Positions 1,376-64,000 of a DNA stretch of 64,000 nucleotides are shown piece after piece; within the stretch, counting starts at the first letter, position 1; each line of letters opens with the position of its first letter. The position numbers and the translations under genes were made by a program. The stretch is from a virus (Duplodnaviria > Caudoviricetes): the IMG/VR virus record IMGVR_UViG_3300036803_000040, positions 11,615-75,614 of that record, one strand, 5' to 3'. The notes beneath the pieces were generated by a model. The model did not search any database, was not told the origin of the DNA, and worked only from the letters and a program-made list of their open reading frames with translations.

Positions 1376-1405
1376 AGCCTAACGCCGGCGCACCGGCGAT
1401 ACCGC
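1376..1405 (-). promoter_or_regulatory. Putative late-type promoter GGTAT-N17-TAGGCT
   Basis: Minus strand GCGGTAT-17 nt-TAGGCT-8 nt-ATG(1367). Confidence 0.55.
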
Positions 1406-3687: not shown

Positions 3688-3770
3688 TGCCAGAACCGGT
3701 GTTGATAGTGGCCGGCCAGCATCCCGAGCACGAACGCCAGCACCACCGCGGCGATCCAGATCGCGGTCAC
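3684..3770 (-). CDS. 28-aa single-TM peptide
   Basis: VTAIWIAAVVLAFVLGMLAGHYQHRFWQ; GTGA overlaps at both ends. Confidence 0.5.
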   Translation of the reverse strand: MTAIWIAAVVLAFVLGMLAGHYQHRFWQ

Positions 3771-4393
3771 GCCGCCTCGCTTCCCTCGCCGAGCTCGCGC
3801 ACCGAACCCGCCGGCGCCTCCCAATCAGCCCACAACGGCGTCTTGTACTCCACCAGCGCATCGAACAGCTCGAGCGCCTCGATCGCCGACATCTCCCCGT
3901 TCGCGACCTTCGCGAGCGCCTCCGCCATACGCCGGCCGGTCTGCAGCATCTCCGACTCAGCGCGGAACAGCTCGAGGTTGTCCGGCAGCTTGCCGACATC
4001 CGCCAGCAGCGCCGTGTACCGCTCAAGCGCGTCCGCCCCACCCTTCATCGCCGCGATCGCGACCGCCGGCGCGCGCTCCCTGCAATCCAGCGCCATCGCC
4101 GCGAAGCTCTCCATCTGCTGCTCATAGGTGCGCAGCACCCGCTCGATGATCTCCATCGGCCGTCGCTCGAGCGCTGTCGGGCGCAGCTGAAACGACGCCT
4201 TGAGCCGCTCCACGCTGCGCGTCGTCAGCCCGTATTTCTTGGCGACGTCCTTCTGCTCGTCGCCGGCGTGCAATGCCGCGATGATCGCCGCGTTACGCAA
4301 CGCGAGCTCGGCCGCGTTGAGCGGCTTGCGCCCACGCTTCGCCGGCGGTTTCTTCTCCCCAGCCTCGCCCGACGTTTCTTTGTCCTCAGCCAC
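3767..4393 (-). CDS. HTH DNA-binding protein (Mor-like HTH plus helical C-terminus; activator or terminase small subunit)
   Basis: RNAAIIAALHAGDEQKDVAKKYGLTTRSVERL. Confidence 0.6.
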   Translation of the reverse strand: MAEDKETSGEAGEKKPPAKRGRKPLNAAELALRNAAIIAALHAGDEQKDVAKKYGLTTRSVERLKASFQLRPTALERRPMEIIERVLRTYEQQMESFAAMALDCRERAPAVAIAAMKGGADALERYTALLADVGKLPDNLELFRAESEMLQTGRRMAEALAKVANGEMSAIEALELFDALVEYKTPLWADWEAPAGSVRELGEGSEAA

Positions 4394-23834: not shown

Positions 23835-23864
23835 AGCCTAAGCGCCGCTCGGCGCTGATACCCC
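23835..23864 (-). promoter_or_regulatory. Late-type promoter GGGGTAT-N17-TAGGCT
   Basis: 6 nt before ATG 23828. Confidence 0.6.
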
Positions 23865-36747: not shown

Positions 36748-36777
36748 ATCGTAAATGCGATCCCGCGGCGATACCCC
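36748..36777 (-). promoter_or_regulatory. Late-type promoter GGGGTAT-N17-TACGAT
   Basis: 9 nt before ATG 36738, heading the sheath operon. Confidence 0.6.
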
Positions 36778-47764: not shown

Positions 47765-48541
47765 GTGCGGCGAAGCGTAAAGCGACTCCGCGAGCGATAC
47801 CACTAGCCGCACGTCGTCGCTGCTCCACTCGCCCACTTCGGGCCACGCGCCCTCTTCCTCGAGGCCCTCCGCGATCAGCAGTTTCCCGCCCGCGCCGCCA
47901 CGCACCACGTAGTCGACCGAGCCCTGCGGCTGCCGGCGGATCCCCTCGATGATCATGCCCTTCTGGCCGGCGCGCCACGGCACCGGGCCCGGCTTGCCCG
48001 ACGTCGGCCACGCGTTGATCGACGTGTGCAACAGGTTCGGGTTCTCGCCCACCGTCTTACGGACCAGCGGCGTCGCCCAAACCTCAGCGATCACGCCGCC
48101 CTTCTGATAGCCGTAGTTGGCGTCATCCTCCTGCACGAAATCGCGATCCCAGCCGCCCTTGAGCACTTGGCCACCGAGCTCGCGGACGCTGCGGCCGTAC
48201 TTCGCGAGCGTCTTGGCGAGCTCGGGCGGAGCGTGATCGAGAAACATCGGCCAGCCGTTGAAGACGCCGGCGTTGCTCTCGAGCATCCGCGGCGTGTAGA
48301 CCGGCGACAGACCACGCACCCGCCGGCCGCGGCTCATGCACGGCCGGATCGTGACCATCTTGCCGACGCCCTGATCGTCGAACACTTTGCCGAGCTTGGG
48401 CCGGCCTGCCGCCACGGCGATCGGAGCTCGGCGCTCCTGCACCCATGTCGGCGTCCAGACCTGCGCCTCGACGCACGGCCCGAACGTGAGGATCTCCTCG
48501 GCGCTCAGCGCCTCCTGCAGCTCGTCGTCCTCGTCGGCCAC
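47030..48541 (-). CDS. Prohead protease plus scaffold
   Basis: VYTPRMLE...MFLDH...RSVRELGG...TSINA...SVDYV protease-like half; acidic coiled-coil C-half. Confidence 0.8.
   Translation of the reverse strand: MADEDDELQEALSAEEILTFGPCVEAQVWTPTWVQERRAPIAVAAGRPKLGKVFDDQGVGKMVTIRPCMSRGRRVRGLSPVYTPRMLESNAGVFNGWPMFLDHAPPELAKTLAKYGRSVRELGGQVLKGGWDRDFVQEDDANYGYQKGGVIAEVWATPLVRKTVGENPNLLHTSINAWPTSGKPGPVPWRAGQKGMIIEGIRRQPQGSVDYVVRGGAGGKLLIAEGLEEEGAWPEVGEWSSDDVRLVVSLAESLYASPHMSDIALPTKPDELREWMQEHAPHLLPALAESSDSGAGSAGEEVKRKRGAKKNDDDGDADDMKEGLTEADVRRIMQESSSDMPTVEEFEQRLREQTERTIAERDEQRELSTIAHRLIESAVGIPPKWKVDLQARYSMLPEGPPASLQIAESEQRDADGKELTAQQVLEARVEADLDHVRDLIAEATGKPRVKGEGAKRSDAGEDRTRTASTRRKAQPYWRQRFVNMGLAESEDKAVEAFGGKVEG
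47774..47803 (-). promoter_or_regulatory. Late-type promoter inside the protease gene
   Basis: CTAGTGGTAT-17 nt-TACGCT. Confidence 0.55.
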
Positions 48542-48969: not shown

Positions 48970-48999
48970 AGCCTAAGCCCGGTCGCCGGCGCATACCCC
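48970..48999 (-). promoter_or_regulatory. Late-type promoter GGGGTAT-N17-TAGGCT
   Basis: 7 nt before ATG 48962, heading the capsid operon. Confidence 0.65.
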
Positions 49000-49692: not shown

Positions 49693-49707
49693 GATCAGGA
49701 AGTTATC
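49693..49707 (+). promoter_or_regulatory. Inverted-orientation GATAAC-N4-TGATC site upstream of the Rpf-like gene
   Basis: gatcaggaagttatc; a second GATAAC half-site at 49669. Confidence 0.45.
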
Positions 49708-49728: not shown

Positions 49729-50751
49729 CTAGACGACGGTGCCGCCGGCGAAGTTCGCCTTGTTCATCCTCAGCTGCGCGTTGCTCTTCGCCTGAGCTCG
49801 CAGCTTGACGCGCTGCTGCTTCGCCGCGGCCCTGCTCGCCGGCGTGCTCTTCGTCCGGCTCGCCTTGATCGTCGCCTGCTTGCTCGTGATCGGGCCCGGC
49901 GCGATCGCCCTGGCGTTCACGTTCCCGCGCAGCGCCGCGAGCGTCTGCCGGCCAATCACCCCGTCGACCTGCAGCCCGTGCTGCTTCTGATAGTTGGTCA
50001 CCGCCGCCTGCGTCTGCGGCCCATACTTGCCGTCGGCGGGAATGTGCAGCTGGCGCTGCAGCGACTTCACCAGCGCCCCCTGCGACCCCTGGCCCAGCAC
50101 CCGCGGCGTCGACGTGCGCGAGCTCGAGCTCCGCGTGGAGTGCCGGCGCGACGTCGCCCGCGTGGCGCGCTTGCCGCCGGTCGTATAGCCGAACTTGCCG
50201 CCCCCAGCTCGAGGATGCTTGCTCGGGTTCCACGTCTTGTAGCCGGCCGCGAGCTGCTTCTGCGCGGCCGCGGCCTGAGCTGCGCCGCGGACCTGCGACT
50301 GCTGCGGCGTCTCGAGCGGCGGATTGAACGCCTCGAGCATCATCCCGATCCCCTCACGGACCGGCGACGGCTTCGTCCCCGGATGCGGCGGCGGCTTGCC
50401 CAACGGCAGCGCGGCCGGCTGCCGAGCTCCCGGCACCGCGCCGGGCCCCGGCGCCTGCTGCGCCTGCTTCATCGCCGCGGCCGCTTCCCGCTTGCGCTCG
50501 AGCGCGTGCTGCGCCGGCGTGTCGAGCTTCACGTCCCCCACGGGCGCCTTGACGTGCGCGCCACCGCCCTCCGGGGCGATGATCGCATGCGTCGGTGGCG
50601 TGCCGCCATGCGGGCGCACGACGCGCCCCACGACCGATTTCCCGCCCTTCACCGAGACGCGCACCCGATCGCTGCTCGTGAAATCCGAGTCCGGGAACTC
50701 CTGCGCCGGCGGCGGCGGAGCGAACCCCTCGAGCAGCATCGAGATGCCCAT
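49729..50751 (-). CDS. Head-region protein with SH3-like, HPR module and PG_binding_1 domain
   Basis: MLLEGF, MMLEAF, WNPSKHPRAGGGKF, GSQGALVKSLQ...DGKYGPQT.AAV..YQ...GL.VDG.IG..T. Confidence 0.8.
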   Translation of the reverse strand: MGISMLLEGFAPPPPAQEFPDSDFTSSDRVRVSVKGGKSVVGRVVRPHGGTPPTHAIIAPEGGGAHVKAPVGDVKLDTPAQHALERKREAAAAMKQAQQAPGPGAVPGARQPAALPLGKPPPHPGTKPSPVREGIGMMLEAFNPPLETPQQSQVRGAAQAAAAQKQLAAGYKTWNPSKHPRAGGGKFGYTTGGKRATRATSRRHSTRSSSSRTSTPRVLGQGSQGALVKSLQRQLHIPADGKYGPQTQAAVTNYQKQHGLQVDGVIGRQTLAALRGNVNARAIAPGPITSKQATIKASRTKSTPASRAAAKQQRVKLRAQAKSNAQLRMNKANFAGGTVV

Positions 50752-51566
50752 CAGCAGCCCTCGAGCAGCGCGCCGAGCGCCGACTCAGTGATCCGCCGAG
50801 CTCGAGCAGCCTTCTCGGCCGCGAGCTGCGCGTTCTGAAGCCTGTAGGCGTCCTGCACGACCTGACCGCGGTAGGCCGGATGCAACGGGCCGATCTTCGT
50901 CGCGTTGCTGTGATGAACGTCCACCGTCGTGCCCGTCACCGGATCGCGCAGCCGCAGATACCCGTTGCGCTGCAGGCCCGACACGGCACGCAGCTGCGGC
51001 TTGCTGTAGCCCTCCACCTTGCCGTTGACGATGCTCGGCGTCCGATACTGCGCGACGTCGCCAACCTTGAAACCGCCGTGACGATCCTGCTGCGGCGCCG
51101 GCGTCGCCCCGAACTCAAGCCCGTCCTTCTGAGCTCGCCGGATCGCATCCTCGGTCGGCGGCTTGTACGGCTTCGCTGCCGGCGCGTTCGGATCCAGCTT
51201 GCGCCGGCGCGACGTCTCAAGGTCCGCCTGCGCGCGGCGCCGGTCAGTCATGCTCATCGGCGTTTCGCCTTGACTACGCCACGCGGGCGATCGCGGTTCC
51301 GGAGCCTTCCCCGTCGCCAGATCCACCACCCGCTGCGCCCCAGCCCGATCGATCGCCGGACGTCCCGGCCGAGCTCGCACCGCGCCCTGAACGGCCGACA
51401 GCAGCCGCTCCCGGTCGAACGACGTGCCGCCCTGCACCGTCGTGACCTGCGTCTTGCCGTGCATCACGTGCAGCTCGCCGGCCACCCACCGGCCATGCCA
51501 ACCCCGCGGATGCTTCGCATCGCTGAACCCCTCGAGCAGCATCGTGATCGGCACGCCGGCCATCAT
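50751..51566 (-). CDS. Head-region protein with HPR module and SH3/KOW-like domain
   Basis: MLLEGFSDAKHPRGWHGRW; FKVGDVAQY...; ends LLEGC. Confidence 0.7.
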   Translation of the reverse strand: MMAGVPITMLLEGFSDAKHPRGWHGRWVAGELHVMHGKTQVTTVQGGTSFDRERLLSAVQGAVRARPGRPAIDRAGAQRVVDLATGKAPEPRSPAWRSQGETPMSMTDRRRAQADLETSRRRKLDPNAPAAKPYKPPTEDAIRRAQKDGLEFGATPAPQQDRHGGFKVGDVAQYRTPSIVNGKVEGYSKPQLRAVSGLQRNGYLRLRDPVTGTTVDVHHSNATKIGPLHPAYRGQVVQDAYRLQNAQLAAEKAARARRITESALGALLEGC

Positions 51567-51574
51567 AAGCCGCG

Positions 51575-51667
51575 TCAGCTGCGAAAGCCGCGGGCCCAGA
51601 CGCGGAGACGCCGCGCCCAAGAGCGCAGCATCTCCACCGCCATGTAGCTGATCGGGTCGACCCTCAT
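51575..51667 (-). CDS. 30-aa peptide
   Basis: MRVDPISYMAVEMLRSWARRLRVWARGFRS; TGATG overlap. Confidence 0.4.
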   Translation of the reverse strand: MRVDPISYMAVEMLRSWARRLRVWARGFRS

Positions 51668-52047
51668 CAGTCGTAGCTCGCGTACTGAGCTGGCGTCTCG
51701 AACCGGTCGTGCAACGCAACCGCCCCGTAGAACCGAGAGCCGGTGATCTTCTCGACGGCCTGACCGAACCGGCTATCGCTCGTCGCGACATAAGCGCCGC
51801 CCATCATCGGGCCCACCCCGGCCGGCGGGCGCAGCGGCTTGTATTCGCCGTCGACTTCCACCGCCGGCACGACGCGCGCCACGCCGGGAACGTTGCCCTT
51901 GAGCAGCAACGCCGCGGGGCGCGTCTCGTCGGGCTCGAATGGCCCCTCGACGTTGACGAGCGTGAGCGAGTCCTTCTCGCTCGAGACGCCACCGTTCGAG
52001 CAGTTGCCGATCCGCTTGTCCTCGAGTATCGACACGATCAGTCCCAT
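51667..52047 (-). CDS. Conserved phage hypothetical protein
   Basis: NCSNGGVSS...GPFEP...MMGG.Y..TSDSRF...YGAV.LHDR.E. Confidence 0.75.
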   Translation of the reverse strand: MGLIVSILEDKRIGNCSNGGVSSEKDSLTLVNVEGPFEPDETRPAALLLKGNVPGVARVVPAVEVDGEYKPLRPPAGVGPMMGGAYVATSDSRFGQAVEKITGSRFYGAVALHDRFETPAQYASYD

Positions 52048-52049
52048 CT

Positions 52050-52337
52050 CTACACCTCCCAGCCGGCGAGTGCCGCCGCTTCGTCGTTGGTCAAGATCCG
52101 CACCGACTCGCGGCCGGTCAGGAACCCCGTCAGGTAGTCGCTCCCGATGCCGCACACCGGCTCGACCACGCCGGCGCTCCACCCCTCGATCGCGGCGCTC
52201 ATCACGCTCCCGTCTCGCAGGTAGACCAGCAGCACGGGATCCTGCGGGTCCGTGCCGACGGTCACCTTGAGCCGTCTCCCGGCGTTCAGCGCGTCCCTCG
52301 CGCGCTGCACCGTCAGTCGATCGTTATCCGTACTCAC
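52050..52337 (-). CDS. Hypothetical protein
   Basis: 95-aa ORF. Confidence 0.65.
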   Translation of the reverse strand: MSTDNDRLTVQRARDALNAGRRLKVTVGTDPQDPVLLVYLRDGSVMSAAIEGWSAGVVEPVCGIGSDYLTGFLTGRESVRILTNDEAAALAGWEV

Positions 52338-52340
52338 TGC

Positions 52341-53021
52341 TCAGCCCTCCTCTGTCGGGCAGCTCGCGCACCGTGCGCCCTGCTGCCGGTTGTAACGGAT
52401 CATCGAGCCCTTCTCGAGCTCAGCGCCGCAGTCCTCACACGAGCTCGTGAACCGAGCCGTGATCATCCTGTCCCGCGGGCCCTGCACCTTCTCGCGCTGC
52501 AGACGCTCGAGACGCTGCCGCGCCTGCGTGATCTGCCCGCCGAGATTGGTCACCTTGTACTGAGCCGCACCCGCGGCCCGCATGACCTCCTCGCGCTCCC
52601 ATGCGCCCTTCGCGCGGAGCTCGGCACCGCCGGCCTTGCGGATCTCCGCGCGCTTGGCCTTGACCGCCTCACGCTCCCGCTCGAGCCCGGCCAGCTTCGC
52701 GGTCAGCCGCTCGATCGCGTCCGGATCGTCATCGTAGATCGCGCGCTCGGCCTGAGCTCGGATCTCCTCCGCCGCGCCGGCCTGCCGTGCCGCCTTCCGG
52801 CTCAGCTCGAGCGACGCGTCCGCTGCGTTGCGAGCTCGCTCGAGCGCCTTCTCGTGACGCCGCTGCGAGTGATGCCCGACCAGGATCGGCTGCCCGAACG
52901 GGATCATCGCCGTGGCCGCGCGGCTCGCCTCGTGCGCCGCGTCACCCTTCGACGCGTTCCCCGAGCTCCAACCGTCCAGCCTGTCCGCTCGAGCCAACCT
53001 GCGTTCGCGGTAGGTCGTCAT
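52341..53021 (-). CDS. DUF3560-like protein with C-terminal Zn ribbon
   Basis: RERR..RA.R...IPFGQPILVGHHSQRRH...I.LDDPDA.E.L..KL; CEDC...RC..C. Confidence 0.8.
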   Translation of the reverse strand: MTTYRERRLARADRLDGWSSGNASKGDAAHEASRAATAMIPFGQPILVGHHSQRRHEKALERARNAADASLELSRKAARQAGAAEEIRAQAERAIYDDDPDAIERLTAKLAGLEREREAVKAKRAEIRKAGGAELRAKGAWEREEVMRAAGAAQYKVTNLGGQITQARQRLERLQREKVQGPRDRMITARFTSSCEDCGAELEKGSMIRYNRQQGARCASCPTEEG

Positions 53022-53215
53022 CCCGTCATCTCCATGATCGTGCTCGTCTCGGCCTCGTGCTCGCCGTCCGCGCTACCGGCCTCGACCGCGGCCATGCACC
53101 CGCTGTTGCCCGCTTCGTACTCCACCCACGCGCCGTCGACGTCTTCCCTGACGGTCTGGCCGCAGTAGATGCAGACGCCCTCTCTGCGGCGCGTCTGCTC
53201 GGTTCCCTTATCCAT
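53018..53215 (-). CDS. Small Cys-containing hypothetical protein
   Basis: AGAAAGGAG RBS; CIYCG. Confidence 0.65.
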   Translation of the reverse strand: MDKGTEQTRRREGVCIYCGQTVREDVDGAWVEYEAGNSGCMAAVEAGSADGEHEAETSTIMEMTG

Positions 53216-53252
53216 CTCACCTTCTCCTTTCTGAGCCTCCCGGCCCACTAGG

Positions 53253-53270
53253 GATGATAACAGGTTTATC
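53253..53270 (-). promoter_or_regulatory. 18-bp repeat copy 1 (GATGATAACAGGTTTATC)
   Basis: Identical at five intergenic sites; TATCAT -10 on the minus strand. Confidence 0.8.
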
Positions 53271-53275
53271 GCGTG

Positions 53276-53761
53276 TCAGCTGCTCCTCTCGTCGCCGGCG
53301 ATGCCGACGCAGCGCCACCCCTCAGCGGCCTTCGCGCCCTGCCGGAAGACCGTGACGTAAGCGCTCGCCGCTCCGCTCAGCCCCGTCCCCGATGCGGCGA
53401 TCGCCGCGCCGGCCGCGGCCCGCTCGACGATCTCCGTCGTGCGATACCCGCGCCTGGCCAGCGCCTTCGCCGAGCTCCCCGTGGGGATCCACTCGCCGGC
53501 GCCCGTCAGCCACTTCTCGCCGTAGCGGGTCTGGCAGACCTTCGCCTCGACGGCCGCGCCCTCGAGCGTGACCAGCGCCGTCCGGGCGAACAATGCCGTC
53601 CCGCCGGCCTCAGCGATCTCCGCCTGCGTGTCCTTCAACCGAGCGGTGATCCCGCTCGCCCACTGCGACAGGAACCCGTCCGTGTCGCAACGCTCGAAAC
53701 TCGCCGCGGCCTCCGCGCGACAAGCCGCCGCCTGCTCCCTCAATTCGCTCGCCGTACCCAT
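53276..53761 (-). CDS. Hypothetical protein
   Basis: SFERCDTDGFLSQWA motif; strong RBS. Confidence 0.75.
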   Translation of the reverse strand: MGTASELREQAAACRAEAAASFERCDTDGFLSQWASGITARLKDTQAEIAEAGGTALFARTALVTLEGAAVEAKVCQTRYGEKWLTGAGEWIPTGSSAKALARRGYRTTEIVERAAAGAAIAASGTGLSGAASAYVTVFRQGAKAAEGWRCVGIAGDERSS

Positions 53762-53793
53762 CCGATCACCGCCTTTCTCTCGTTTGCAGACCT

Positions 53794-53811
53794 GATGATA
53801 ACAGGTTTATC
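53794..53811 (-). promoter_or_regulatory. 18-bp repeat copy 2
   Basis: GATGATAACAGGTTTATC. Confidence 0.8.
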
Positions 53812-53817
53812 GCCCGG

Positions 53818-54804
53818 CTACGCCTCCGCGGCGAGCTCGAGCCCGCGCAGGATCCGCTCGCGGTCTGCCTGCTCGAGCGCCACCTCACGCCGATAGACGT
53901 CCAAGTCGATCTCGCTGCGGATCGCCTCCCGCACCGTGTCCGCGAGCAGCTCCGGAGGCATCGCCTCGAGCTGACACGTCTCGCCCGTCCAGTTGCGTGA
54001 GCGCGTGTCGCTTTTCTTCGGCGGCGCCGTCGGGAGATCATTCTCATAGACCTGATCCTCGGTCAGCGCCACACGCACCGGCCGCAGCTCGGGCGAACGC
54101 TTGCCCGTGACGATCTCCATCACCTGCTCCTCCTCGAGCGACATCGCCTTACCCAGCGCGATCGCGTTCTCGGGATCGTCGTTCACCTGCGCCGCGTGCA
54201 CGAGCTGGCGCACGAACATCCGCGCGTCCTGCGCCATCGCCGTGAAGATCGACTCGCCCGACGGGTCATAGTCGCCGCAGTGCAGGAACACCGTCGGCAC
54301 GTCGCGCAGCAGAGCTCGCTTCGCGATCTCCCACGTCACCGTCACGCTCGAGAACCCACCCGTCGAATAGATCGGCACGCTGAACGGATACGCGACGCGC
54401 TGCATCTGCGGCACCATGCCGGCCGCTTCGCACCAGAGCTCGATCGCGACATCCTGGCCGGCGAGCCGGTGCCTTGAGTAGTGCTCGACGTCGCTCTGCA
54501 CGCCCTCCCAGAAATCCGCCACGTCAGCGAACGTCTGCGGCTCACCGCCGGCGGTCCCGTCATCACGGATCGCCCCGAACGAGATCATCCCCGCCCGGCG
54601 AGCTCGCACGAGCATCTCGCACAGCCGCGCGTAAGCCTGCTCGGTCTTGTCATAGCCGTACTGGCCGACCAGCCGGTAGAACACCTGGCGGACCGTCAGC
54701 GGCAGGAACTTCTGATACTCCTCGAGCACCGAGTCGACCTGATCCAACAGCGCGAGCGTCTCCACTCGCGGCTCCCACGTCGCAAACCCACGCGGTCTAG
54801 CCAC
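53818..54804 (-). CDS. Toprim-domain protein (TopoVI-A/Spo11/JetD-like)
   Basis: LTVRQVFYRLV, ELWCEA, GGFSS, LHCGDYDPSG, RVALT..Q, LEAMPP. Confidence 0.8.
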   Translation of the reverse strand: MARPRGFATWEPRVETLALLDQVDSVLEEYQKFLPLTVRQVFYRLVGQYGYDKTEQAYARLCEMLVRARRAGMISFGAIRDDGTAGGEPQTFADVADFWEGVQSDVEHYSRHRLAGQDVAIELWCEAAGMVPQMQRVAYPFSVPIYSTGGFSSVTVTWEIAKRALLRDVPTVFLHCGDYDPSGESIFTAMAQDARMFVRQLVHAAQVNDDPENAIALGKAMSLEEEQVMEIVTGKRSPELRPVRVALTEDQVYENDLPTAPPKKSDTRSRNWTGETCQLEAMPPELLADTVREAIRSEIDLDVYRREVALEQADRERILRGLELAAEA

Positions 54805-55114
54805 GGGACATCACCTCCTCGATCGTCTGTTTGAACTTGCCGGCGATCGCCGGCGGGAACGCCTCGAGCACCTCCTCGAGCTCGCCGCTTCGATAGTCAC
54901 CGTCGAGCTCGCCGGGCCCGTGGAACGCCGCGGCCCACTCACTACGCGGCGGGCGGGCATCCTCGTGCCAGCCCGTCCCGTCGGTCGACCACATGCCAGG
55001 GAACCGCTCCTCGTCCCGGAGGATCTCCGTCTGCGGGCCCCACACCTGATAAGAGACGCGGCCGGCGTCGAGCGTCCAGCCCGGCCCGTGGAATCGCATC
55101 GCCTCGATCTTCAT
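54797..55114 (-). CDS. Hypothetical protein
   Basis: 105-aa Trp-rich ORF. Confidence 0.65.
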   Translation of the reverse strand: MKIEAMRFHGPGWTLDAGRVSYQVWGPQTEILRDEERFPGMWSTDGTGWHEDARPPRSEWAAAFHGPGELDGDYRSGELEEVLEAFPPAIAGKFKQTIEEVMSRG

Positions 55115-55506
55115 GCCGGCACCTTGTCGCTGTACCGGACGCCGGCCTTCGGGCGCCTGTAGAGCTCACAGTCGCGGTTATGACACGTGCCGGCCCACGA
55201 CCCGAACGTGTCGATCGGCCAGCCGCACGTCTCGCAGTGCGAGTGCGCCGCCGACACGCCCGTGTTGCATTTCGTGCAGCGCCCGTACTCCTCGAGCTCC
55301 GCAGCCTCACGAGCTCGAGCCTCCGCCGCCGCGCGCAGCTGACTCTCATAGCGCTTGAAATCGTCGCCGGCCTGCCCCGCCGCGTCGACCGCCCGCGCCA
55401 GATGCGCCTTCAACGTCCGGTCGACGTCGCCGGCGAGCTCATACGCCTCACGCGTCAGCTGCTCGGCGTTCGCCAGCTTGCGCCGGATTCGCTCGGCCTT
55501 ACTCAT
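55111..55506 (-). CDS. Coiled-coil plus Zn-ribbon protein
   Basis: CTKC...CETC...C...C. Confidence 0.7.
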   Translation of the reverse strand: MSKAERIRRKLANAEQLTREAYELAGDVDRTLKAHLARAVDAAGQAGDDFKRYESQLRAAAEARAREAAELEEYGRCTKCNTGVSAAHSHCETCGWPIDTFGSWAGTCHNRDCELYRRPKAGVRYSDKVPA

Positions 55507-55512
55507 CCTCGC

Positions 55513-55734
55513 TCACCTCTTCCACGGTTCGATGATCTTCACGTCCGGCCCGTAGGCCCTGCGCAGCACCCGACGGAGCTCGGCGATCGAGCGGTTGTCG
55601 AACTGCCGCGGCAGCGTCCGGTCGCCGATCTGGATCGTGTCCGGACCGGTCGCCTGATACAGCCACGACCACGCCGGGCCAGGCCGCGGCCGCGACGGGT
55701 AGACCTTGACTCGAGTGATCGTGATCTCGGTCAT
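55513..55734 (-). CDS. Hypothetical protein
   Basis: 73-aa ORF. Confidence 0.65.
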   Translation of the reverse strand: MTEITITRVKVYPSRPRPGPAWSWLYQATGPDTIQIGDRTLPRQFDNRSIAELRRVLRRAYGPDVKIIEPWKR

Positions 55735-56051
55735 GCCGCCATCGCGATCCGCAGCTGCCGGGCGGTCCCGATCTCGCGCTTGATCTCCTGCGCCATCTTG
55801 ACCACCTCACGCTGCTCCGCTCGAGCCGCCTTCAGCGTCCGCAGCGTCATGTTGTCCTGCGTGACGAACCGGCCCGTGACTCGCGTCGCGGCCTGCATCC
55901 CCCGGACCAGCTGCGCGCCGTGAATGCCGCAGCAGTAGAAGGGCCCGCCGCAACACTCGATCGAGCGGATCCCGTACTCGATCGCGCTCAGCGTCTCCGT
56001 CGCCTCGATGTACTCCTGAATGGCGCCCTGCGCCTTCGATGCGGTATCCAT
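55731..56051 (-). CDS. Hypothetical protein
   Basis: GAAGGA RBS before MDTASK, downstream of repeat copy 3. Confidence 0.7.
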   Translation of the reverse strand: MDTASKAQGAIQEYIEATETLSAIEYGIRSIECCGGPFYCCGIHGAQLVRGMQAATRVTGRFVTQDNMTLRTLKAARAEQREVVKMAQEIKREIGTARQLRIAMAA

Positions 56052-56097
56052 CGTGTCACCGTCCTTCGGTCGGGGTTTCTCTCTCACCTGCACCAGC

Positions 56098-56115
56098 GAT
56101 GATAACAGGTTTATC
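56098..56115 (-). promoter_or_regulatory. 18-bp repeat copy 3
   Basis: GATGATAACAGGTTTATC. Confidence 0.8.
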
Positions 56116-56318
56116 GGCGGCGTGCGATCACGCGGCGGATCACGAGCAGCCCCCACGAGCTCGTCAACCGGGCCCGGAATCGGCAGCAGCGCGACCACCA
56201 GCGCCGCCTTCTCATACCAGCGCGCCTCGCGCCACACGCCGCGGATCAGGCCGGCGTGCGCCCGGACCAGCAGCAGCACGCCGGCGATCGCCGCGGCCAG
56301 CAGCACCGTCTCGATCAT
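56111..56318 (-). pseudogene. Small membrane protein with an apparent extra G in a G5 run
   Basis: Removing one G at 56150-56154 gives ...PIPGPVDELVGLLVIRRVIARRR-TAA. Confidence 0.5.
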
Positions 56319-56413
56319 CGCGGCCGCTCCTCGCTCGAGACGAACCGCTCCGGGTCAAGCCGGAACGCCCACGCGACCAACCTGTCCGCGATCAGGGCTC
56401 GCAGCCCTGCCAT
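56315..56413 (-). CDS. 32-aa peptide
   Basis: MAGLRALIADRLVAWAFRLDPERFVSSEERPR; coupled to both neighbours. Confidence 0.45.
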   Translation of the reverse strand: MAGLRALIADRLVAWAFRLDPERFVSSEERPR

Positions 56414-56995
56414 CTAGCTCACCGCCTTCCCTGCCGCGATCGCCCGCTCGGTCTGAGCGAACAGCACGACCCTGTAGTTGCCGCCGTCGCCGCCGGCAGC
56501 CTCGAACTCCTCGATCGCGGCCATCGCCCGCTTCGCGCGATAGGCCACCGAGATCACCGCCTCTTTCTCGACGCCCATCGCCAGCCAACCCAGCTCGCCG
56601 ACCGCCTTGCAGCGGGCCTCGTTCTGGACCGCCTCGTCGTCGGCGGGGACCAGCTTCACGCCCTCGCCCTCGAACTTGCGCTGATCGCGCTGCTCGAACG
56701 TCCACTGACCGGGCAGTCCGTCGATCTCGACGATCTCGCCGAGCTCGATCCTGCGCGCCGCCATGTACTCAGCGTGCGCCTGCCCGGTGTTGTCGATCAC
56801 CGCTGCGTGCACCGTGGTGAACGCCCAAGGTCCGGGGATCTCCGGGCCGCTCTGCTCCTGTCGCGCCTTGCTGCCGGCGGGGACGACGCACACGTTGCAC
56901 TTGCCCCATCGCGCCCCGGTGACCACGATGTCGCCGGTCTTCAGCAGCTCGCCGTAGCGATCCATCTCCGTCGCGAGCTTTGTTGCCGTACCCAT
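56414..56995 (-). CDS. Hypothetical protein
   Basis: 193 aa, strong RBS, downstream of repeat copy 4. Confidence 0.75.
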   Translation of the reverse strand: MGTATKLATEMDRYGELLKTGDIVVTGARWGKCNVCVVPAGSKARQEQSGPEIPGPWAFTTVHAAVIDNTGQAHAEYMAARRIELGEIVEIDGLPGQWTFEQRDQRKFEGEGVKLVPADDEAVQNEARCKAVGELGWLAMGVEKEAVISVAYRAKRAMAAIEEFEAAGGDGGNYRVVLFAQTERAIAAGKAVS

Positions 56996-57032
56996 CTCAC
57001 CGTCTCCCTTCGTTGCTTACCGGTCCACCCGT

Positions 57033-57050
57033 GATGATAACAGGTTTATC
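57033..57050 (-). promoter_or_regulatory. 18-bp repeat copy 4
   Basis: GATGATAACAGGTTTATC. Confidence 0.8.
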
Positions 57051-57063
57051 AGCGGCGCGAGCT

Positions 57064-57264
57064 CTACTCGATGAACACCGCGTAGACGCCCTCCGCCGCC
57101 GGCAGCGCCGGCCGCTCAACCTGCTCAGCCGCGATCCACTCCACGCCGCCCCACTCCTCGAGCAGCTGCAGAGCTCGCGTCGGCGAGTCCGCGGCCACGA
57201 GCGCCTCCGCGTGATCCCCGACGATCGCGAACCACACGAGCAGGCTCAGCAGCTCGTCAGGCAT
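57064..57264 (-). CDS. Hypothetical protein
   Basis: Trimmed to MPDELL. Confidence 0.55.
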   Translation of the reverse strand: MPDELLSLLVWFAIVGDHAEALVAADSPTRALQLLEEWGGVEWIAAEQVERPALPAAEGVYAVFIE

Positions 57265-57469
57265 CGTCTGCCGCCGCCTGCAGCATCCGCTGATGCTTGG
57301 CGCTGGCCACGTGCCGGCGCACCGCCGCGACCGCGCGCGAGTGCTCGATCGGCTCCCCGCGGTAGCCGCACGGCTCGCACACCGCAACCATGCCGCCGTA
57401 GATCGCCCGCGGGTCGCCCCAATCCACGCCGGCCGGGTCGCCGGCGATCGGATGCTCGAGCTCAACCAT
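57257..57469 (-). CDS. C2H2-like Zn-finger peptide
   Basis: CEPC...H....H. Confidence 0.55.
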   Translation of the reverse strand: MVELEHPIAGDPAGVDWGDPRAIYGGMVAVCEPCGYRGEPIEHSRAVAAVRRHVASAKHQRMLQAAADDA

Positions 57470-57779
57470 TCGGCCGTCTCCCACTCCCGCCGCACCGATA
57501 GCACGTGTACCCCGGCCACTCCGCACGACCGCCGGCGCCACCGCATCGCGGGCACGCGCCGGGATCCTCGAGCGACGTCTCCGCTTCGCCCCGGACGATC
57601 AGCACGCGATCGTGCCGCTCGAGCTCGAACCCCTCGAGCGCCGCGGCCGCATCCTCGAGCGTGCCGCCGTAGCCGCGCCGGACGATCACGCCGCCGCCCT
57701 GCGCAGGCCACACGCAGCCATTCCAGCGCAGACCAGCCCGCCGCAGAGCTCCTCGCACGTTGTCGCTGTTGGCGATCAT
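57462..57779 (-). CDS. Protein with CxxCxGxG Zn finger
   Basis: CPRCGGAG...CYRCGGSG. Confidence 0.65.
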   Translation of the reverse strand: MIANSDNVRGALRRAGLRWNGCVWPAQGGGVIVRRGYGGTLEDAAAALEGFELERHDRVLIVRGEAETSLEDPGACPRCGGAGGRAEWPGYTCYRCGGSGRRPNG

Positions 57780-58498
57780 CCGATGTCCATCGTCAGGTTG
57801 CGAGCTCGACCGCAGTAGTCCAGCCCATCGGCCAGGTAGGTGTCCTTGAACTTGGCCCACTTGCTGCCGTCCACCGAATCGGCCTGCAGCACGTCTCGGC
57901 AGTAGTCCAGCCGGCGCAGCGTGTTCACCCTGCCGACGTGCACCCACTTGCCGCGCTGCTGCGCTTCGCGGGTCAGAGCTCGCGCTGCGGGCCCCAGCTT
58001 CCAATCGGTGTCGCCGCCGATAAACAGCGCGTCGATCCGGTGCCAGCTGCGCTCAAGCCACGCGGGCATCTCCTCGAGCCCGTTCTGTGCGACCAGCGCG
58101 ACGGGGATCCCGCGGCGCTCTAGCGCCGGCGCGTGGATCTCGAACATGCGAGCCGTCTCGCGAGCGTCGGCCACCTTGTCGGGAACCGTCGCCCACAGGC
58201 AACCGTCGAGCCCGGTGATGCGGTCCAGCATCCGCTGCCAGGCGATCGCGTCCAAGCCCTGAAAGCAGTCGTTGTCAGCGGCCCAGCTGATGCCCGCCTC
58301 GTCGGTCGCCTCGATCGAGCTCGTGTGCCGCGGCTGTATCAGCCGGCCCATCGCCGGGTGCGCGTAGCGCTCGAAGTCGGGATGGCCTGTCGTGACCAGC
58401 AGCAGCATCCGCTGCGTGCGCAGTCTCGAGAGATCCTGAGCTGTCAGGCGATCGGTTGCGGCCGCTTGCGCGGCCGCGGTCATCGTTGCGGTTGCCAT
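57776..58498 (-). CDS. TGT/DpdA-like TIM-barrel protein (putative base-exchange enzyme)
   Basis: WAADNDCF...VPDKVADA..T...VAQNG...LFIGG..DWK...KWVHVGRVN...DSVDGS. Confidence 0.65.
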   Translation of the reverse strand: MATATMTAAAQAAATDRLTAQDLSRLRTQRMLLLVTTGHPDFERYAHPAMGRLIQPRHTSSIEATDEAGISWAADNDCFQGLDAIAWQRMLDRITGLDGCLWATVPDKVADARETARMFEIHAPALERRGIPVALVAQNGLEEMPAWLERSWHRIDALFIGGDTDWKLGPAARALTREAQQRGKWVHVGRVNTLRRLDYCRDVLQADSVDGSKWAKFKDTYLADGLDYCGRARNLTMDIG

Positions 58499-58503
58499 CT
58501 CAG

Positions 58504-58812
58504 TCACCCCGCCTGGACGATCTTGCGGGACTTCTCGCCAACCCACCCGTGCGCCCCGGTGGAGCGTTCGTAGTAGATCCAGCCCTCGCCGGCGTACTCC
58601 TGGCCGGTCGCCCACTCGGCGATGACCCCGCGGCCGTCCTCGGTGGCCGTCCAAGTCTCAGCGATGACCTCGCCGGCGATGATCGCCTCGATGCCGAACT
58701 CGGCCTCCGCTGCCTTGCTCCACCCGCACTGCGTAACGATCAGCTCGCCGCAGATGTTGGCGGAGTAGACCTTCTGAGTCGTCCCCGTCACCTGCTCGGT
58801 CGCCGTACTCAC
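58504..58812 (-). CDS. Hypothetical protein
   Basis: GAAAGGAGG RBS, downstream of repeat copy 5. Confidence 0.75.
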   Translation of the reverse strand: MSTATEQVTGTTQKVYSANICGELIVTQCGWSKAAEAEFGIEAIIAGEVIAETWTATEDGRGVIAEWATGQEYAGEGWIYYERSTGAHGWVGEKSRKIVQAG

Positions 58813-58873
58813 TAGGCCCTCCTTTCCGGGCCCTCCGGTCGGGCCCTTCGGTGTCTCCCTGAACCTGCACCAC

Positions 58874-58891
58874 GATGATAACAGGTTTATC
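58874..58891 (-). promoter_or_regulatory. 18-bp repeat copy 5
   Basis: GATGATAACAGGTTTATC. Confidence 0.8.
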
Positions 58892-58911
58892 GGCAGCGTG
58901 CCGAGACAGAG

Positions 58912-58940
58912 CTCGAGCTCCGCGACGAACGGAGCTCGAG
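58912..58940 (-). terminator. Hairpin separating the head transcript from the accessory island
   Basis: CTCGAGCTCCG-cgacgaa-CGGAGCTCGAG, followed by CTCTGTCT on the minus strand. Confidence 0.55.
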
Positions 58941-59070
58941 TTTCCTGCCTCTGAGTTTGGGCCTCGTCACCGTGCTCGCGGACCGTCGCCCGGCCGTCGG
59001 CACACTCCCTACGGCTTACCGCTCCACCCCCGCGGGAGGCTTCAACGCGTGCGCCGGGCCCGTGGGAAGA

Positions 59071-59250: not shown

Positions 59251-59448
59251 CTATGGCGTCCCTGGCGGTGCCAGCGGCGCCTTCGCGGTCGCATTCGCCT
59301 CATCGGACCCGAACGCCGGCAGCTTGTCGATGTCGACGCGCTCACCCCCGACGATCAGCGGCTTCGCGTATGCGCCCTTGAGTTTCTTCTCGCCCCAATC
59401 GCCGACATCGTTCCCGCCGGCAGCCTTGATCTCCTCGTGAGTCGGCAC
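59251..59448 (-). CDS. Hypothetical protein
   Basis: 65-aa ORF. Confidence 0.6.
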   Translation of the reverse strand: MPTHEEIKAAGGNDVGDWGEKKLKGAYAKPLIVGGERVDIDKLPAFGSDEANATAKAPLAPPGTP

Positions 59449-59454: not shown

Positions 59455-61485
59455 TTACCCCTTCGCCTTGTCCAAGAATCGCTGATACATCGCAGCGTGT
59501 TTGATCACGAGCTTATCAGCGCCGCGTGCGCGCTCGGCGATCACGCTGTTCGGCCGCGCCGTCGTGTCCACGATCTGCAGATGGATGCCGGGGATCTTCG
59601 ACACGTCCTCGACGAACCGCCGCGACACCTCCGCGTGCGCATCCTTGAGAAACTGATCGGGCACGTACCGCCCGCCCTTATCGCCGCGGGCCTTGGCCCT
59701 GGCCATCGCCGTCTTCACGTCCGTCGTGGCGTAGTGCACGCTGACCTCGTGGCCGGCGCGCTGCGCCTGGCGGATCTTGCCGGCGAACTTGTCCGGGCCC
59801 GAGTCGCCCACCGTGTCGACGAGAATGTGATGCTGCCGGCCGAGCGCCAGCTTTGTCAGCACCTTCGCGAGATGCGACGCCTCCTCGTGCGTCGCGTTCG
59901 ACGCATCCTTGCGGCCGGCGTCGACCATCTGCTGATACTCCGGGAGCATCGCCCGGATCGTGTCCGGGTCGGCGTTCACGACATCCTTGGGCAGCGTCAG
60001 CATCCCGAACTTCTCGAGCCCCGACTTGCCGGATGCCGGCCCGCCGGCGGTGAAGATCGCCCTGGCCTTCCCCTCGTGACGCGCCTTGCCCTGCAGCATG
60101 TTCGTGAGGATCTGCTCGTGCAACGCCTGGCGCTCGGGACTGTAGGCACCCAGCGAGCCGTCAGCGTTGACCAGCCGGTGCGCGTGCTCGGTGTCGGCGA
60201 CCTTGCCGGCCATGATGTCCTTCCCGGCCTTCAGCGCGCTCGAGCTCCACTTCCCCGTCCCGACCGAGCTCGCGAGCTTGCCCAGCGGGATCTGCGGCTT
60301 GCTGGCCAGCGCCCGCGTCGCCGCGTTGGCCGGGTTGCGCCTGCCGCCCTCATAGCTCTGATGCGCCGCAGAGCGGATCCGTGACGCGCTCGAGCTCGGC
60401 CGGCTCTCGATCGCGGCGCGAGCTCGGGCGCCGCCCGTCGTCCACTTGCCGCCGAACCCGCGGAGCTCGTCCGGGTGGAACGCCTCCGCGATCAGATCAA
60501 AAGGGTCAGCGCGGCGTGCCTCCTGCACACGCCGCAGCGGTGGGATCTCGGTGCTCGAGACGGTCATCAGATCAAAGCGCAGCGCCTCCGCGACCTGCTC
60601 AACCTTGCTGTCGCGCTCCGGTGTCGTCGGCGCCGGCGGCAGCCCCGCAGAATGCCGCGCCGCCTGCTCAGAGCTGAACTGCTTGTAGCTCGTCTCACCG
60701 CTGTAGCTGTGCGGGTCAGCCACCAGGAACTTGCCGACCGTCGGCAGCGTGATCACCCTGGCCGGCGCCTCCTCGAGATGCGACTGCAACGCCTTGAGTG
60801 CATCGTCCCGGCTCGCGCAGTTGTAGTCGGTCACCCGCTTGCCGTTGACCGCGAACGCCGCGTGCTGATTGGGCTCGCGCTTGCCGTTGATCCCGCCGTA
60901 GCCGCGGCGCTGCGCGACCGTCCCGACATGCTGGCCACCGTCATAGACCTCGTGGCGATCGACCTCGTTCGACGCGCTGGCCGTCCGCTTCAGCGTCGGC
61001 TTCCACGCCGCCGCCTCACGCAGCACACCCTCGCCGAGCAGGCCGATCAGCCCGTCGACGCCGACCACCTCCTCGAGCAGCAGGATCCGGCCCATCGCGT
61101 CACGCTCGGCGAGACGCTCATCCGCCCACGTGGCCACGTAGCGGTCCGCCTCCTCGATCCACGATTCCTTGACCGCGCCCTTCGCGGCGTTTCCGGCTTT
61201 CTTGGCCTCCCACTCAGCGACGGCCTTCGCTGCCGCGGCCTGCGTGTTGGCGTCGACCTTCCCGCCGCCGGCAGCCCACCGCTTCACCACGCCGATCGCC
61301 TTCTGGATCGCGCTTGACTCGTCGCTGGCGCCCGAGCGCAGGATCCCGTGCGCGACGTGCTGAATGTAGTCCGGCAGCCCGCCGGCGCGCGCCACCCAAT
61401 TGCTCGTCTTCGACGTCGAGAACGGCTGCGGCGTGCTGGCCTTGACCAGCGAGTCTGCAGCCTCCCGTAGCGGCGCCAGGGTCAT
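59455..61485 (-). CDS. Head-region multidomain protein with C-terminal zeta-toxin-like P-loop kinase
   Basis: N-terminal NWVARAGGLPDYIQHVAH helical domain; AIFTAGGPASGKS, NADPDTIR, HEEAS, ILVDT, ARAKAR..KGGRYVP. Confidence 0.85.
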   Translation of the reverse strand: MTLAPLREAADSLVKASTPQPFSTSKTSNWVARAGGLPDYIQHVAHGILRSGASDESSAIQKAIGVVKRWAAGGGKVDANTQAAAAKAVAEWEAKKAGNAAKGAVKESWIEEADRYVATWADERLAERDAMGRILLLEEVVGVDGLIGLLGEGVLREAAAWKPTLKRTASASNEVDRHEVYDGGQHVGTVAQRRGYGGINGKREPNQHAAFAVNGKRVTDYNCASRDDALKALQSHLEEAPARVITLPTVGKFLVADPHSYSGETSYKQFSSEQAARHSAGLPPAPTTPERDSKVEQVAEALRFDLMTVSSTEIPPLRRVQEARRADPFDLIAEAFHPDELRGFGGKWTTGGARARAAIESRPSSSASRIRSAAHQSYEGGRRNPANAATRALASKPQIPLGKLASSVGTGKWSSSALKAGKDIMAGKVADTEHAHRLVNADGSLGAYSPERQALHEQILTNMLQGKARHEGKARAIFTAGGPASGKSGLEKFGMLTLPKDVVNADPDTIRAMLPEYQQMVDAGRKDASNATHEEASHLAKVLTKLALGRQHHILVDTVGDSGPDKFAGKIRQAQRAGHEVSVHYATTDVKTAMARAKARGDKGGRYVPDQFLKDAHAEVSRRFVEDVSKIPGIHLQIVDTTARPNSVIAERARGADKLVIKHAAMYQRFLDKAKG

Positions 61486-61592
61486 GTCAGCACCAGCGCC
61501 ACGAGCAGCCCGACGATCCCGCCGGCGACAAAGCCCTCCCACCAGGCATGGCGCAGACGACGCTCAAGCGGCCGGTGAATCCCTGCCGTCAC
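61482..61592 (-). CDS. 36-aa single-TM peptide
   Basis: MTAGIHRPLERRLRHAWWEGFVAGGIVGLLVALVLT; ATGA overlap. Confidence 0.5.
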   Translation of the reverse strand: MTAGIHRPLERRLRHAWWEGFVAGGIVGLLVALVLT

Positions 61593-61738: not shown

Positions 61739-62106
61739 GCGGCAGACCGTACCGCGGGCGCCATCTCGATACCCCGCGCCGCCGGCCGGTGATCCGCGGC
61801 GCTGAGCAGCAGCGTCACCTTCAGCACGGCGAGCTCGCGGCGTGTCGGCGGACGGTCCTGATACGCCCGACGGAAGCCGTCACGCACCCCGTAGATCGCC
61901 ACCTGCCAGCCCGCGCGATCGCTCGAGTCGCTCGGCCAGCGCACCGCGCCCGCCGGCGGATCCGGCGTGTTGGACAGGATCGTCCGCTTCCCCGGCCGGA
62001 TCGCTCGCTCCCACGCCTCATCGAACGACAGCCCCTCGATCTTCGCCTCGAGCAACAGCCGTGTCAGCTGCTCGTGCGGGAGCTCATACAGACGCTTGGG
62101 CGCCAC
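61735..62106 (-). CDS. Hypothetical protein
   Basis: GGAGGT RBS before GTG 62106. Confidence 0.6.
   Translation of the reverse strand: MAPKRLYELPHEQLTRLLLEAKIEGLSFDEAWERAIRPGKRTILSNTPDPPAGAVRWPSDSSDRAGWQVAIYGVRDGFRRAYQDRPPTRRELAVLKVTLLLSAADHRPAARGIEMAPAVRSAA
61746..61775 (-). promoter_or_regulatory. Late-type promoter GGGGTAT-N17-TACGGT
   Basis: 7 nt before ATG 61738. Confidence 0.6.
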
Positions 62107-63732: not shown

Positions 63733-64000
63733 TCAGCTGTTCCCGTTGAGCGCCATCGCCGTCTGCACAGCCGGGTCGGCGACGAGCTCGCGAAACAGCT
63801 TGCCGGCATCCCCGACCATGCGATCGACCTGGCCGCGAGCTCCCGCCTCGAGCCACTCCGCCTCGAGCGCCCCGTCGCCGGCGCCGCCCGAGCCCTGCGA
63901 ATTGGCGCCGTAAGGCTGCTGGCCCGAGTCCGGCGAATCGTTCGCGCCGGCGCCCGCGCCAGAGCCCGTGGCCCAGTCAGGCGCGCCCTGGCCCGGCGTG
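63733..64000 (-). CDS. C-terminus of a truncated CDS, probably the portal
   Basis: Open frame ...GALEAEWLEAGARG...ALNGNS-TGA directly upstream of the MuF-like gene; identity from synteny only. Confidence 0.5.
   Translation of the reverse strand, partial: TPGQGAPDWATGSGAGAGANDSPDSGQQPYGANSQGSGGAGDGALEAEWLEAGARGQVDRMVGDAGKLFRELVADPAVQTAMALNGNS

Follow-up and report, generated by a model that had tools for sequence, protein, structure and literature searches.

In Streptomyces phage phiC31, conserved inverted repeats are dispersed along the genome and serve as repressor operators that overlap or adjoin early promoters. Promoter-early stem-loop (PeSL) elements are mobile regulatory cassettes of T4-type phages (PMC2839356, PMC4122927), and each unit is described as carrying a strong sigma-70-like promoter with both a -35 and a -10 element (PMC2839356). 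Cluster A mycobacteriophages contain tens of stoperators, sites of 13-17 bp that are oriented with transcription (PMC9283540, PMC6550527). These asymmetric 13-14-bp sites lie in transcribed operons, where a monomeric immunity repressor binds them and blocks elongation (PMC9283540). Accessory insertions in phage structural operons, or morons, are a further established concept (PMC2839356). The locus considered here bears on each of these systems. It lies in a 64,000-nucleotide stretch (the window) of the Caudoviricetes record IMGVR_UViG_3300036803_000040, in which five perfect copies of an 18-bp box head the units of an island of accessory genes within the head module. The boxes are probably host-polymerase promoters combined with a dyad operator for a putative phage dimer; they would place early or middle accessory units inside a late operon, and the units would have spread by duplication or recombination.

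Five Repeats and the Units They Head

The sequence GATGATAACAGGTTTATC occurs in five exact plus-strand copies (53253, 53794, 56098, 57033, and 58874), all where an earlier note on this DNA had placed them, and shuffled sequence is expected to contain none. Apart from these, the window offers a single near match, with 3 mismatches, and the whole 75.6-kb record holds no sixth copy at 2 or fewer mismatches. Because the genes served sit on the minus strand, the functional reading is GATAAACCTGTTATCATC, a near-palindrome that overlaps an extended -10 element (TGtTATCAT, of the TGn-TAnnnT type). The boxes and their units are as follows.

58874..58891, minus strand: box copy 5, heading D102, E240, F105, G70, and H66
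57033..57050, minus strand: box copy 4, heading I193, J32, and the K region
56098..56115, minus strand: box copy 3, heading L106, M73, N131, O105, and P328; within or at the end of an upstream coding signal
53794..53811, minus strand: box copy 2, heading Q161 alone
53253..53270, minus strand: box copy 1, heading R65, S226, T95, and U126
51667..58812, minus strand: the five box-headed units, about 19 genes, mostly ORFans, with no paralogy
59503..59517, minus strand: degenerate sixth box GATAAGCTCGTGATC, -10 lost, upstream flank box-like, just ahead of the small genes B65 and C56

All five units carry the -10 hexamer TATCAT with its TG extension, as the earlier note had proposed for the hexamer. 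At the -35 position they read CGGCAC, GCTCGC, TCGCAC, GCGTAG, and CAGCTG, with no conservation of the kind expected from the PeSL description. Unconserved -35 regions are common among actinobacterial promoters. The distances from box to start codon are 61, 37, 46, 32, and 37 nt; 35-65 nt had been claimed before. A strong ribosome-binding site (RBS) had been claimed for every copy; RBS-like motifs do follow the boxes, and they are strong at copies 5 and 1 but weaker at copy 3.

Copies 1, 2, and 4 start 5, 6, and 13 nt behind an upstream stop codon, so these spacers hold little beyond box, leader, and RBS, and copy 5 sits in a 259-nt spacer. These four copies are intergenic, as had been stated for all five, whereas copy 3 lies inside an open reading frame (ORF) kept open in frame from 56318 to 55731. 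Near 56200 the signal of GC content at third codon positions (GC3) changes frame, into the frame that is closed by a TAA within box 3. The other frame continues past box 3 into the gene that follows. The switch falls in a small membrane-protein-like ORF (window 56111-56318) and may reflect a frameshift, overlapping genes, or an indel made in assembly.

A Box Family across the Genome and Its Relatives

The earlier note had described the repeat in the island. Judged from sequence comparison, the island box is a sub-type of a putative promoter/operator family that is both genome-wide and group-wide, not a new kind of system. In the window the family pattern GATAAC-N4-TKATC is matched 23 times, where 0.52 would be expected. 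Boxes outside the island have the coding-strand reading GATCA-N4-GTTATC(A/T/G)T and stand in front of the RecT/PD-(D/E)XK exonuclease operon, Ku, a DnaC-like gene, and several small genes. Relatives were located by a capsid alignment search (a single-protein capsid search of IMG/VR returned none), and five whole records were compared.

G001: capsid identity 74%, 3 boxes
G002: capsid identity 66%, 8 boxes
G003: capsid identity 58%, 7 boxes, at 59258, 56686, 51534, 49601, 46781, 44207, and 35245
G004: capsid identity 66%, 14 boxes
G005: capsid identity 49%, 0 boxes

The genome studied here (G000) has 13 usable boxes. In this genome and in G001-G004, every usable box is on the coding strand just upstream of a gene. 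Positions 12-17 of the box read TAnnnT without exception, usually with TGn just before, a constancy that agrees with the assignment of the hexamer as a -10. Furthermore, in four boxes outside the island the hexamer is followed after 7-8 nt by an ATG or GTG that opens an ORF of 85-335 codons with high GC3. Such spacing is that of leaderless mRNAs, which are common in Actinobacteria, and it is the best sequence-level support for the hexamer as a real -10. Some boxes have a weak -35-like sequence (nnGCAC, TTGCAC, or TTGACG) 17-18 nt ahead of the -10. In the relatives, nearly every box is followed 6-10 nt past the -10 by (T)ACCC(C)GAG, with an RBS and start codon next; ACCCGAG would be the first transcribed bases and might work as an initial transcribed sequence or as a 5' element of the RNA. 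The element also occurs behind three non-island boxes here (window 20313 and 11284; genome 6330).

The dyad GATAA-N5-TTATC has about 10 bp between half-site centers, overlaps the core promoter, and covers about -23 to -9. All six dyad pairs are complementary in most G002 boxes. A change in both half-sites is seen in G003, where the dyad reads GGTAAC...GTTACC versus GATAAC...GTTATC in G000, G001, G002, and G004. Position 2 is G in all seven G003 boxes and position 14 is C in five of the seven; elsewhere these positions are A/T in 37/37. This concerted change fits altered specificity of one symmetric trans-acting binder, although as a single lineage event it is suggestive, not statistical. A box-like dyad in inverted orientation lies upstream of Y185 (window 49693-49707) with no usable -10 on either strand and may be an operator-only site.

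Structural genes use a distinct motif, GGTAT-N17-TAnnnT, with six exact minus-strand sites in the window against 0.04 expected.

61746-61773, minus strand: exact match; the late-type promoter nearest the island on its upstream side
48970-48997, minus strand: exact match; the late-type promoter nearest the island on its downstream side
47774-47801, minus strand: exact match
36748-36775, minus strand: exact match
23835-23862, minus strand: exact match
1376-1403, minus strand: exact match

Between 58900 and 49000 there is no promoter of either class besides the island boxes. No phage RNA polymerase or sigma factor was found among the proteins scanned, which did not include every small ORF; no integrase was seen in this phage, and no repressor gene was identified. 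Weak regulator-type matches are those of HTH_23 and phrog_836 to a 208-amino-acid protein (3767-4393); a zinc-finger protein of 87 amino acids and an H2TH/mIHF-like protein of 115 amino acids are the other weak candidates.

Homologous Promoter-Leader Units before Unrelated Genes

Similarity among the island units extends past the 18-mer. The flanks of copies 3 and 5, for which about 40 bp of sharing had been claimed, are 77% identical over 52 nt, and those of copies 1 and 4 are 78% identical over 74 nt. Leader, RBS, and first codons are homologous in pairs 1-4, 2-4, 3-4, and 3-5 (p <=0.006, 500 shuffles). The flanks upstream of the boxes are dissimilar, one pair excepted. Paralogy among the cassette genes was considered and rejected: the genes behind the five boxes are unrelated to each other. 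Because the leaders are homologous while the genes are not paralogous, the element that repeats is a predicted promoter-leader unit, not a gene.

The island copies also form a distinct set. Their 18 nt are identical, the left half-site is GATAAA versus GATCA in the genome's other boxes, and no ACCCGAG element follows. They are more palindromic than the other boxes of the genome, with five of six dyad pairs complementary in every copy. Box identity within a genome is not unique to the island; several G002 boxes that lie tens of kb apart share a 17-mer and long flanks. A scan for the exact 18-mer gave 5 IMG/VR contigs and 61 contigs of JGI metagenomes. All of these contain single copies, are below 58% GC, and lack any island gene, and the matches were rejected as chance.

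A Probable Insertion in the Head Module

The virus record is 75,614 bp long at 69% GC, and the window corresponds to its bases 11615-75614. The record ends (genome 1-167 and 75448-75614; window 63834-64000) overlap by 167 nt with 2 mismatches. Because of this overlap and because the likely portal gene runs across the join, the record is read as a permuted complete genome, circular or terminally redundant, of effectively 75,447 bp and not as a fragment. Nearly all genes of the record are on the minus strand. Megablast matched the island to none of 50,697 records of cultured phages, and all capsid tblastn matches were below 30% identity, so the phage is one without a cultured relative. It is an uncultured, high-GC soil phage of a little studied lineage. 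Among 185,579 species genomes, the sole match is L124 (JBOGYZ010000269.1), a 25.8-kb contig of a Solirubrobacterales metagenome-assembled genome. Its capsid is 47% identical, it has no boxes, and it keeps the same head-gene order.

The island spans about 59.5-51.6 kb of the window. Along the direction of transcription it is preceded by terL (GpA type), small genes, a portal-like ORF, g490, g158, a MuF-like gene, B65, and C56, and it is followed by W271, X340, Y185, Z141, AA503, AB159, and the major capsid protein gene. The placement within the head module thus agrees with the earlier note, with portal, g490, g158, and the MuF-like gene upstream and protease-like, scaffold, and capsid genes downstream. 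The claim that head genes resume after 51566 matches the start of W271 at that position.

59455..61542, minus strand: MuF-like head gene, 695 amino acids with a C-terminal zeta-toxin kinase domain, on the upstream flank
50751..51566, minus strand: W271, with a KHPRG motif, on the downstream flank; missing from the relatives too

The portal candidate is a 668-codon ORF that wraps the record ends and has a weak match to the lambda portal family. No match to g490 was obtained in Atlas or PDB searches. X340, which is next after W271, has a peptidoglycan-binding domain. AA503 resembles prohead proteases by language-model features, and the downstream head block contains the scaffold gene together with this protease-like gene and the capsid gene, whose product belongs to Pfam Phage_capsid_4.

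Gene order in the relatives identifies the island as accessory, as had been claimed. In G001, portal, g490, g158, MuF, X340, protease, scaffold, and capsid are contiguous within 7.4 kb, and the MuF-like gene directly precedes the X340-like gene. The contiguous head order is likewise found in G002, G003, L016, L018, and L124. The island is missing at the equivalent place in every relative compared, the nearest of which has 74% capsid identity. This order in the relatives suggests that the head-gene operon was ancestrally contiguous and received the block by insertion. Only two island genes, E240 and P328, have homologues in the five relative records, and both sit elsewhere, behind boxes. GC content and GC skew are even across the island, and an origin of foreign composition was rejected on that ground.

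The X340-protease area is a putative recurrent breakpoint, because G004 is rearranged at almost the same junction as the island. In G004 (L040-L044), a complete relative, 31 kb (32438-63449) separate the X340 homologue from the protease-scaffold-capsid block. This stretch opens with a box at 32541 and includes tail and recombination genes.

Hairpins at the Island Edges

Strong hairpins lie at both edges of the island.

58903..58951, minus strand: GC-rich hairpin, dG -40.4 kcal/mol, z -4.2, no U-tract, 11 nt upstream of box 5
51568..51644, minus strand: paired strong hairpins between the U126 stop and the W271 start, dG -48.2 kcal/mol, z -3.3

The upstream-edge hairpin has a 12-bp inner stem (58912-58940). 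It is this stem that the earlier note had described; the hairpin is real and larger, and the insulation from head transcription that was ascribed to it would be at most partial, as neither edge hairpin has a U-tract. It may be terminator-like or a 3'-end stabilizer. For the edge hairpins together, attenuator, 3'-end stabilizer, and processing site are candidate roles. The downstream pair overlaps a possible Arg/Trp-rich 30-codon ORF (51575-51667).

A terminator for each cassette was considered and rejected, because a stable upstream stem-loop is present at copy 5 only. Within the 70 nt that precede each box, copy 5 has a stable hairpin (z -4.4), whereas folding at copies 4, 3, 2, and 1 is not stronger than in shuffled sequence (z -1.0, +0.8, +0.2, and +1.3, respectively). 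With no stable fold at these four boxes, the cassettes would be uninsulated from one another.

Gene Content of the Island

Most island proteins have no match in Pfam, PHROG, or PDB sequence searches. Three genes can be described as follows.

57776..58498, minus strand: E240, a TIM barrel; candidate DpdA-like DNA-guanine transglycosylase of the tRNA-guanine transglycosylase (TGT) family
53818..54804, minus strand: P328, putative topoisomerase-VI-A/Spo11-like protein (winged helix and Toprim), phrog_6247
52341..53021, minus strand: S226, DUF3560 with a C-terminal zinc ribbon

Phage DNA into which DpdA enzymes have inserted 7-deazaguanines is protected against restriction (PMC6884629, PMC10516641). 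The E240 model has a predicted local distance difference test score (pLDDT) of 91 and matches a bacterial TGT with Z of about 15 over 213-218 aligned residues, tied with other TIM barrels. By tblastn, E240 is 41-48% identical to actinophage genes annotated by their depositors as "DpdA-like tRNA-guanine transglycosylase," and it has no Pfam TGT match. No QueC or QueD (PTPS) match was found in the whole record, in which FolE and QueE were not searched, so a 7-deazaguanine precursor would need a host source. Homologues with 49-54% identity are located in distant non-structural regions of G002, G003, and G004. In G002 the homologue is a single gene between two boxes, and in G004 it follows a small extra gene. 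E240 homologues in the relatives also occur as solitary, box-flanked genes. A box search near the DpdA-like genes of 11 other phage contigs finds boxes only in G002 and G004.

P328 matches PHROG 6247, "DNA topoisomerase," with an E value of 2e-35. Its model has a pLDDT of 90.5, and the top 7 Foldseek PDB matches are all topoisomerase VI A subunits, although weak (E ~1e-3, TM 0.3). An invariant Tyr43 and Glu122 appear in the P328 alignment together with D178-x-D180. The G003 homologue (66% identity) sits behind a box in an accessory stretch between terL and portal, and the homologue at the equivalent G001 place is 23% identical. The family of unnamed phage proteins to which P328 belongs is very large, with >1,900 database matches. 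No topoisomerase VI B subunit is encoded near P328.

Cys-rich zinc-ribbon-like motifs can be read from the translations of F105, G70, N131, R65, and S226. F105 (57462-57779) ends in two CxxCxGxG repeats (CPRCGGAG and CYRCGGSG), a zinc-finger repeat typical of DnaJ-type chaperones. As predicted from these features, the island is a nucleic-acid-directed accessory set whose sole counter-defense link is E240. The proposal of an anti-host or anti-defense module would accordingly depend on one gene, the candidate DpdA-like enzyme.

Proposed Mechanism and Alternatives

In the mechanism that we favor, the 18-bp repeat would be the core of a promoter for host RNA polymerase, of sigma-A type with an extended -10, and the 15-bp dyad (GATAAa-cct-GTTATC) would be an operator over about -23 to -9. 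Binding of a dimeric, probably phage-encoded regulator to the dyad would shut the promoter. The five copies would drive five co-directional, tightly packed non-structural accessory units, in a block inserted into a once-contiguous head operon, and the strong hairpins at both edges would partially insulate the island. Because its promoter class is shared with recombination and replication genes, the island would be expressed with early or middle genes and not with the surrounding head genes. Since boxes of this class also precede the RecT, Ku, and DnaC-like genes, the evidence suggests early/middle timing rather than the specifically immediate-early timing that the earlier note had proposed. 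Its description of the module as recombination-shuffled gains indirect support from the homologous promoter-leader units and from the E240 and P328 homologues that lie elsewhere in the relatives.

Several observations weigh against this mechanism. No regulator can be named, as candidate proteins gave just weak helix-turn-helix (HTH) or zinc-finger matches. The island boxes lack the relatives' ACCCGAG and have an unconserved -35, so they may behave unlike the main class. W271, X340, and Y185 have no promoter of either class and would be reached by read-through, so that the hairpins, if these genes are expressed, could not be tight terminators. Relatives with 85-95% capsid identity (P0001-P0012) exist in the protein database and may carry the island; one 31,289-nt contig seems to hold capsid gene P0011 and the P328 homologue P0243. 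Finally, the L124 contig gives only a weak hint at Solirubrobacterales as the host lineage.

The principal rivals concern what reads the boxes and what moves them. It is unlikely that the boxes are mainly recombination substrates, PeSL-like portable cassettes of ~60-75 bp (box, leader, RBS, and first codons) in which a promoter role is secondary and of which RecT/exonuclease-driven movement, deletion, and duplication would have made the island. The phage does encode RecT and a PD-(D/E)XK exonuclease, homology is confined to the promoter-leader units while the genes are unrelated, and G002 boxes 43 kb apart have long near-identical flanks. Gene positions agree: E240 is a single-gene unit in G002, belongs to a 5-gene unit here, and follows a small gene in G004, and P328 occupies the terL-portal accessory region in G003 and G001. 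On the other hand, 18 exact bp with ~70% identical flanks give recombination little length to act on, IMG/VR and the JGI metagenomes yield no further high-GC contig with the exact 18-mer, and the relatives compared (<=74% capsid identity) contain no close pair differing by one cassette. It is distinctly unlikely that a phage-directed polymerase specificity (a sigma-like factor, an RNA polymerase-modifying protein, or an unrecognized phage RNA polymerase) reads the boxes in place of plain sigma-A. Its recognition sequence would be the long unit of dyad, -10, and, in the relatives, transcribed ACCCGAG. Conservation in the relatives over ~35 nt, from the left half-site to +8, is consistent with such a unit. 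So are the weak or missing -35 region and the many identical copies per genome, which resemble T7-type or middle/late phage promoters, and the related phage G005 is boxless, as expected for dependence on a phage-encoded factor. However, the proteins scanned, which did not include every small ORF, yielded no RNA polymerase or sigma domain, the -10 has the TAnnnT form with TGn known from actinobacteria, and the spacing at leaderless starts is the usual one.

Two other explanations dispense with the promoter or with the island itself. The dyad could act as an RNA or single-strand hairpin (GAUAA-ACCUG-UUAUC), that is, as a processing, boxB-like antitermination, or translation signal whose likeness to a -10 is coincidental. 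Its arms are complementary, with complementarity kept in the G003 variant, and the lack of stable terminators between cassettes makes long read-through transcripts likely. This explanation is nevertheless highly improbable, as the stem has just 5-6 pairs, mostly A-U, and the final T of TAnnnT and the TG extension are conserved though outside the dyad. In addition, four boxes are 7-8 nt from start codons and need no upstream transcript, and two of the seven G003 sites keep T opposite G although all left half-sites are changed, which fits changed specificity better. It is least credible of all that the five identical copies arose when fragments of different phages were joined at repeats in assembly, as an artifact or chimera, and that the island was never in the genome. 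In its favor, the record was assembled from a metagenome and its ends repeat 167 nt with 2 mismatches, and the GC3 frame switch at ~56200 is beside box 3. Against these points, an 18-bp repeat is far shorter than the k-mers of assemblers, neither GC content nor skew changes over the island, gene spacing is tight with stop/start overlaps across units, and the box family is found throughout the genome and its relatives.

An extension of the operator-promoter mechanism is more tentative, and we regard it as possible but doubtful. Box, leader, and RBS might together be a portable 60-75-bp expression adaptor that wires a gene through the dyad regulator into the early/middle regulon and at the same time supplies homology for RecT-mediated cassette movement, even into a head operon. 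If so, actinophages would have a counterpart to the PeSL shuffling of T4, with an operator-promoter in place of a promoter-terminator. The island sub-type, with its GATAAA left half and no ACCCGAG leader, would then mark a separately timed sub-regulon.

Comparison with Known Systems

Like morons, the island consists of non-structural genes with their own promoters and an edge hairpin, is located between virion genes, and is missing from relatives. It differs in its scale, ~19 genes in five units, and in its use of the phage's standard promoter/operator instead of imported signals. Early-type accessory cassettes can thus apparently sit in a head operon that is contiguous in relatives.

The boxes resemble stoperators in that the site seems to co-evolve with the specificity of a phage regulator, as in the G003 variant. 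They are dyads with a -10 at the heads of genes and units, however, and so fall outside the stoperator definition.

The phiC31 repeats are similar in that one inverted repeat recurs many times in non-structural regions and at promoters, presumably as the binding site of a single phage regulator. In contrast to those repeats, the boxes fuse the dyad to the -10 at a fixed register, and the relatives add transcribed ACCCGAG. Moreover, five copies here are inside the head operon, and no repressor gene was identified and no integrase seen. The distinction between the dyad-plus-(-10) box and the structural-gene motif provides a map of transcription organization for an unstudied soil-phage lineage, possibly one infecting Solirubrobacterales. 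The box might further serve as a handle for predicting the timing class of ORFans, for regulator fishing, and for selecting counter-defense candidates such as the DpdA-like enzyme.

The likeness to PeSL elements, which the earlier note had drawn, extends to unit homology and to the ORFan-rich variable region but not to the stem-loop, which is stable only beside copy 5. In both systems repeated promoter and RBS units are squeezed between stop and start codons, and the regulatory units are homologous to each other although the genes beside them are not. Both occur in variable ORFan-rich regions; the island genes are mostly functionless in Pfam and PHROG and missing from relatives. A dyad overlapping the -10 is known from one PeSL subclass, and the phages have a recombination system of their own in both cases. 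PeSL units differ in having a stable G-C stem-loop/terminator each, whereas hairpins are present here only at the island edges, and in having a conserved -35 or AT-rich upstream element, which is missing from the island units. The island dyad is an AT-rich, operator-like palindrome of 5-6 bp with symmetry kept across phages, and the host of the island phage would be of the high-GC actinobacterium type. Recombination between PeSL units yields mini-circles and cassette indels between near-identical phages, whereas for the island such mobility would be hypothetical. Should cassettes turn out to be exchanged at the boxes, modular shuffling of the PeSL type would reach beyond the T4-like phages.

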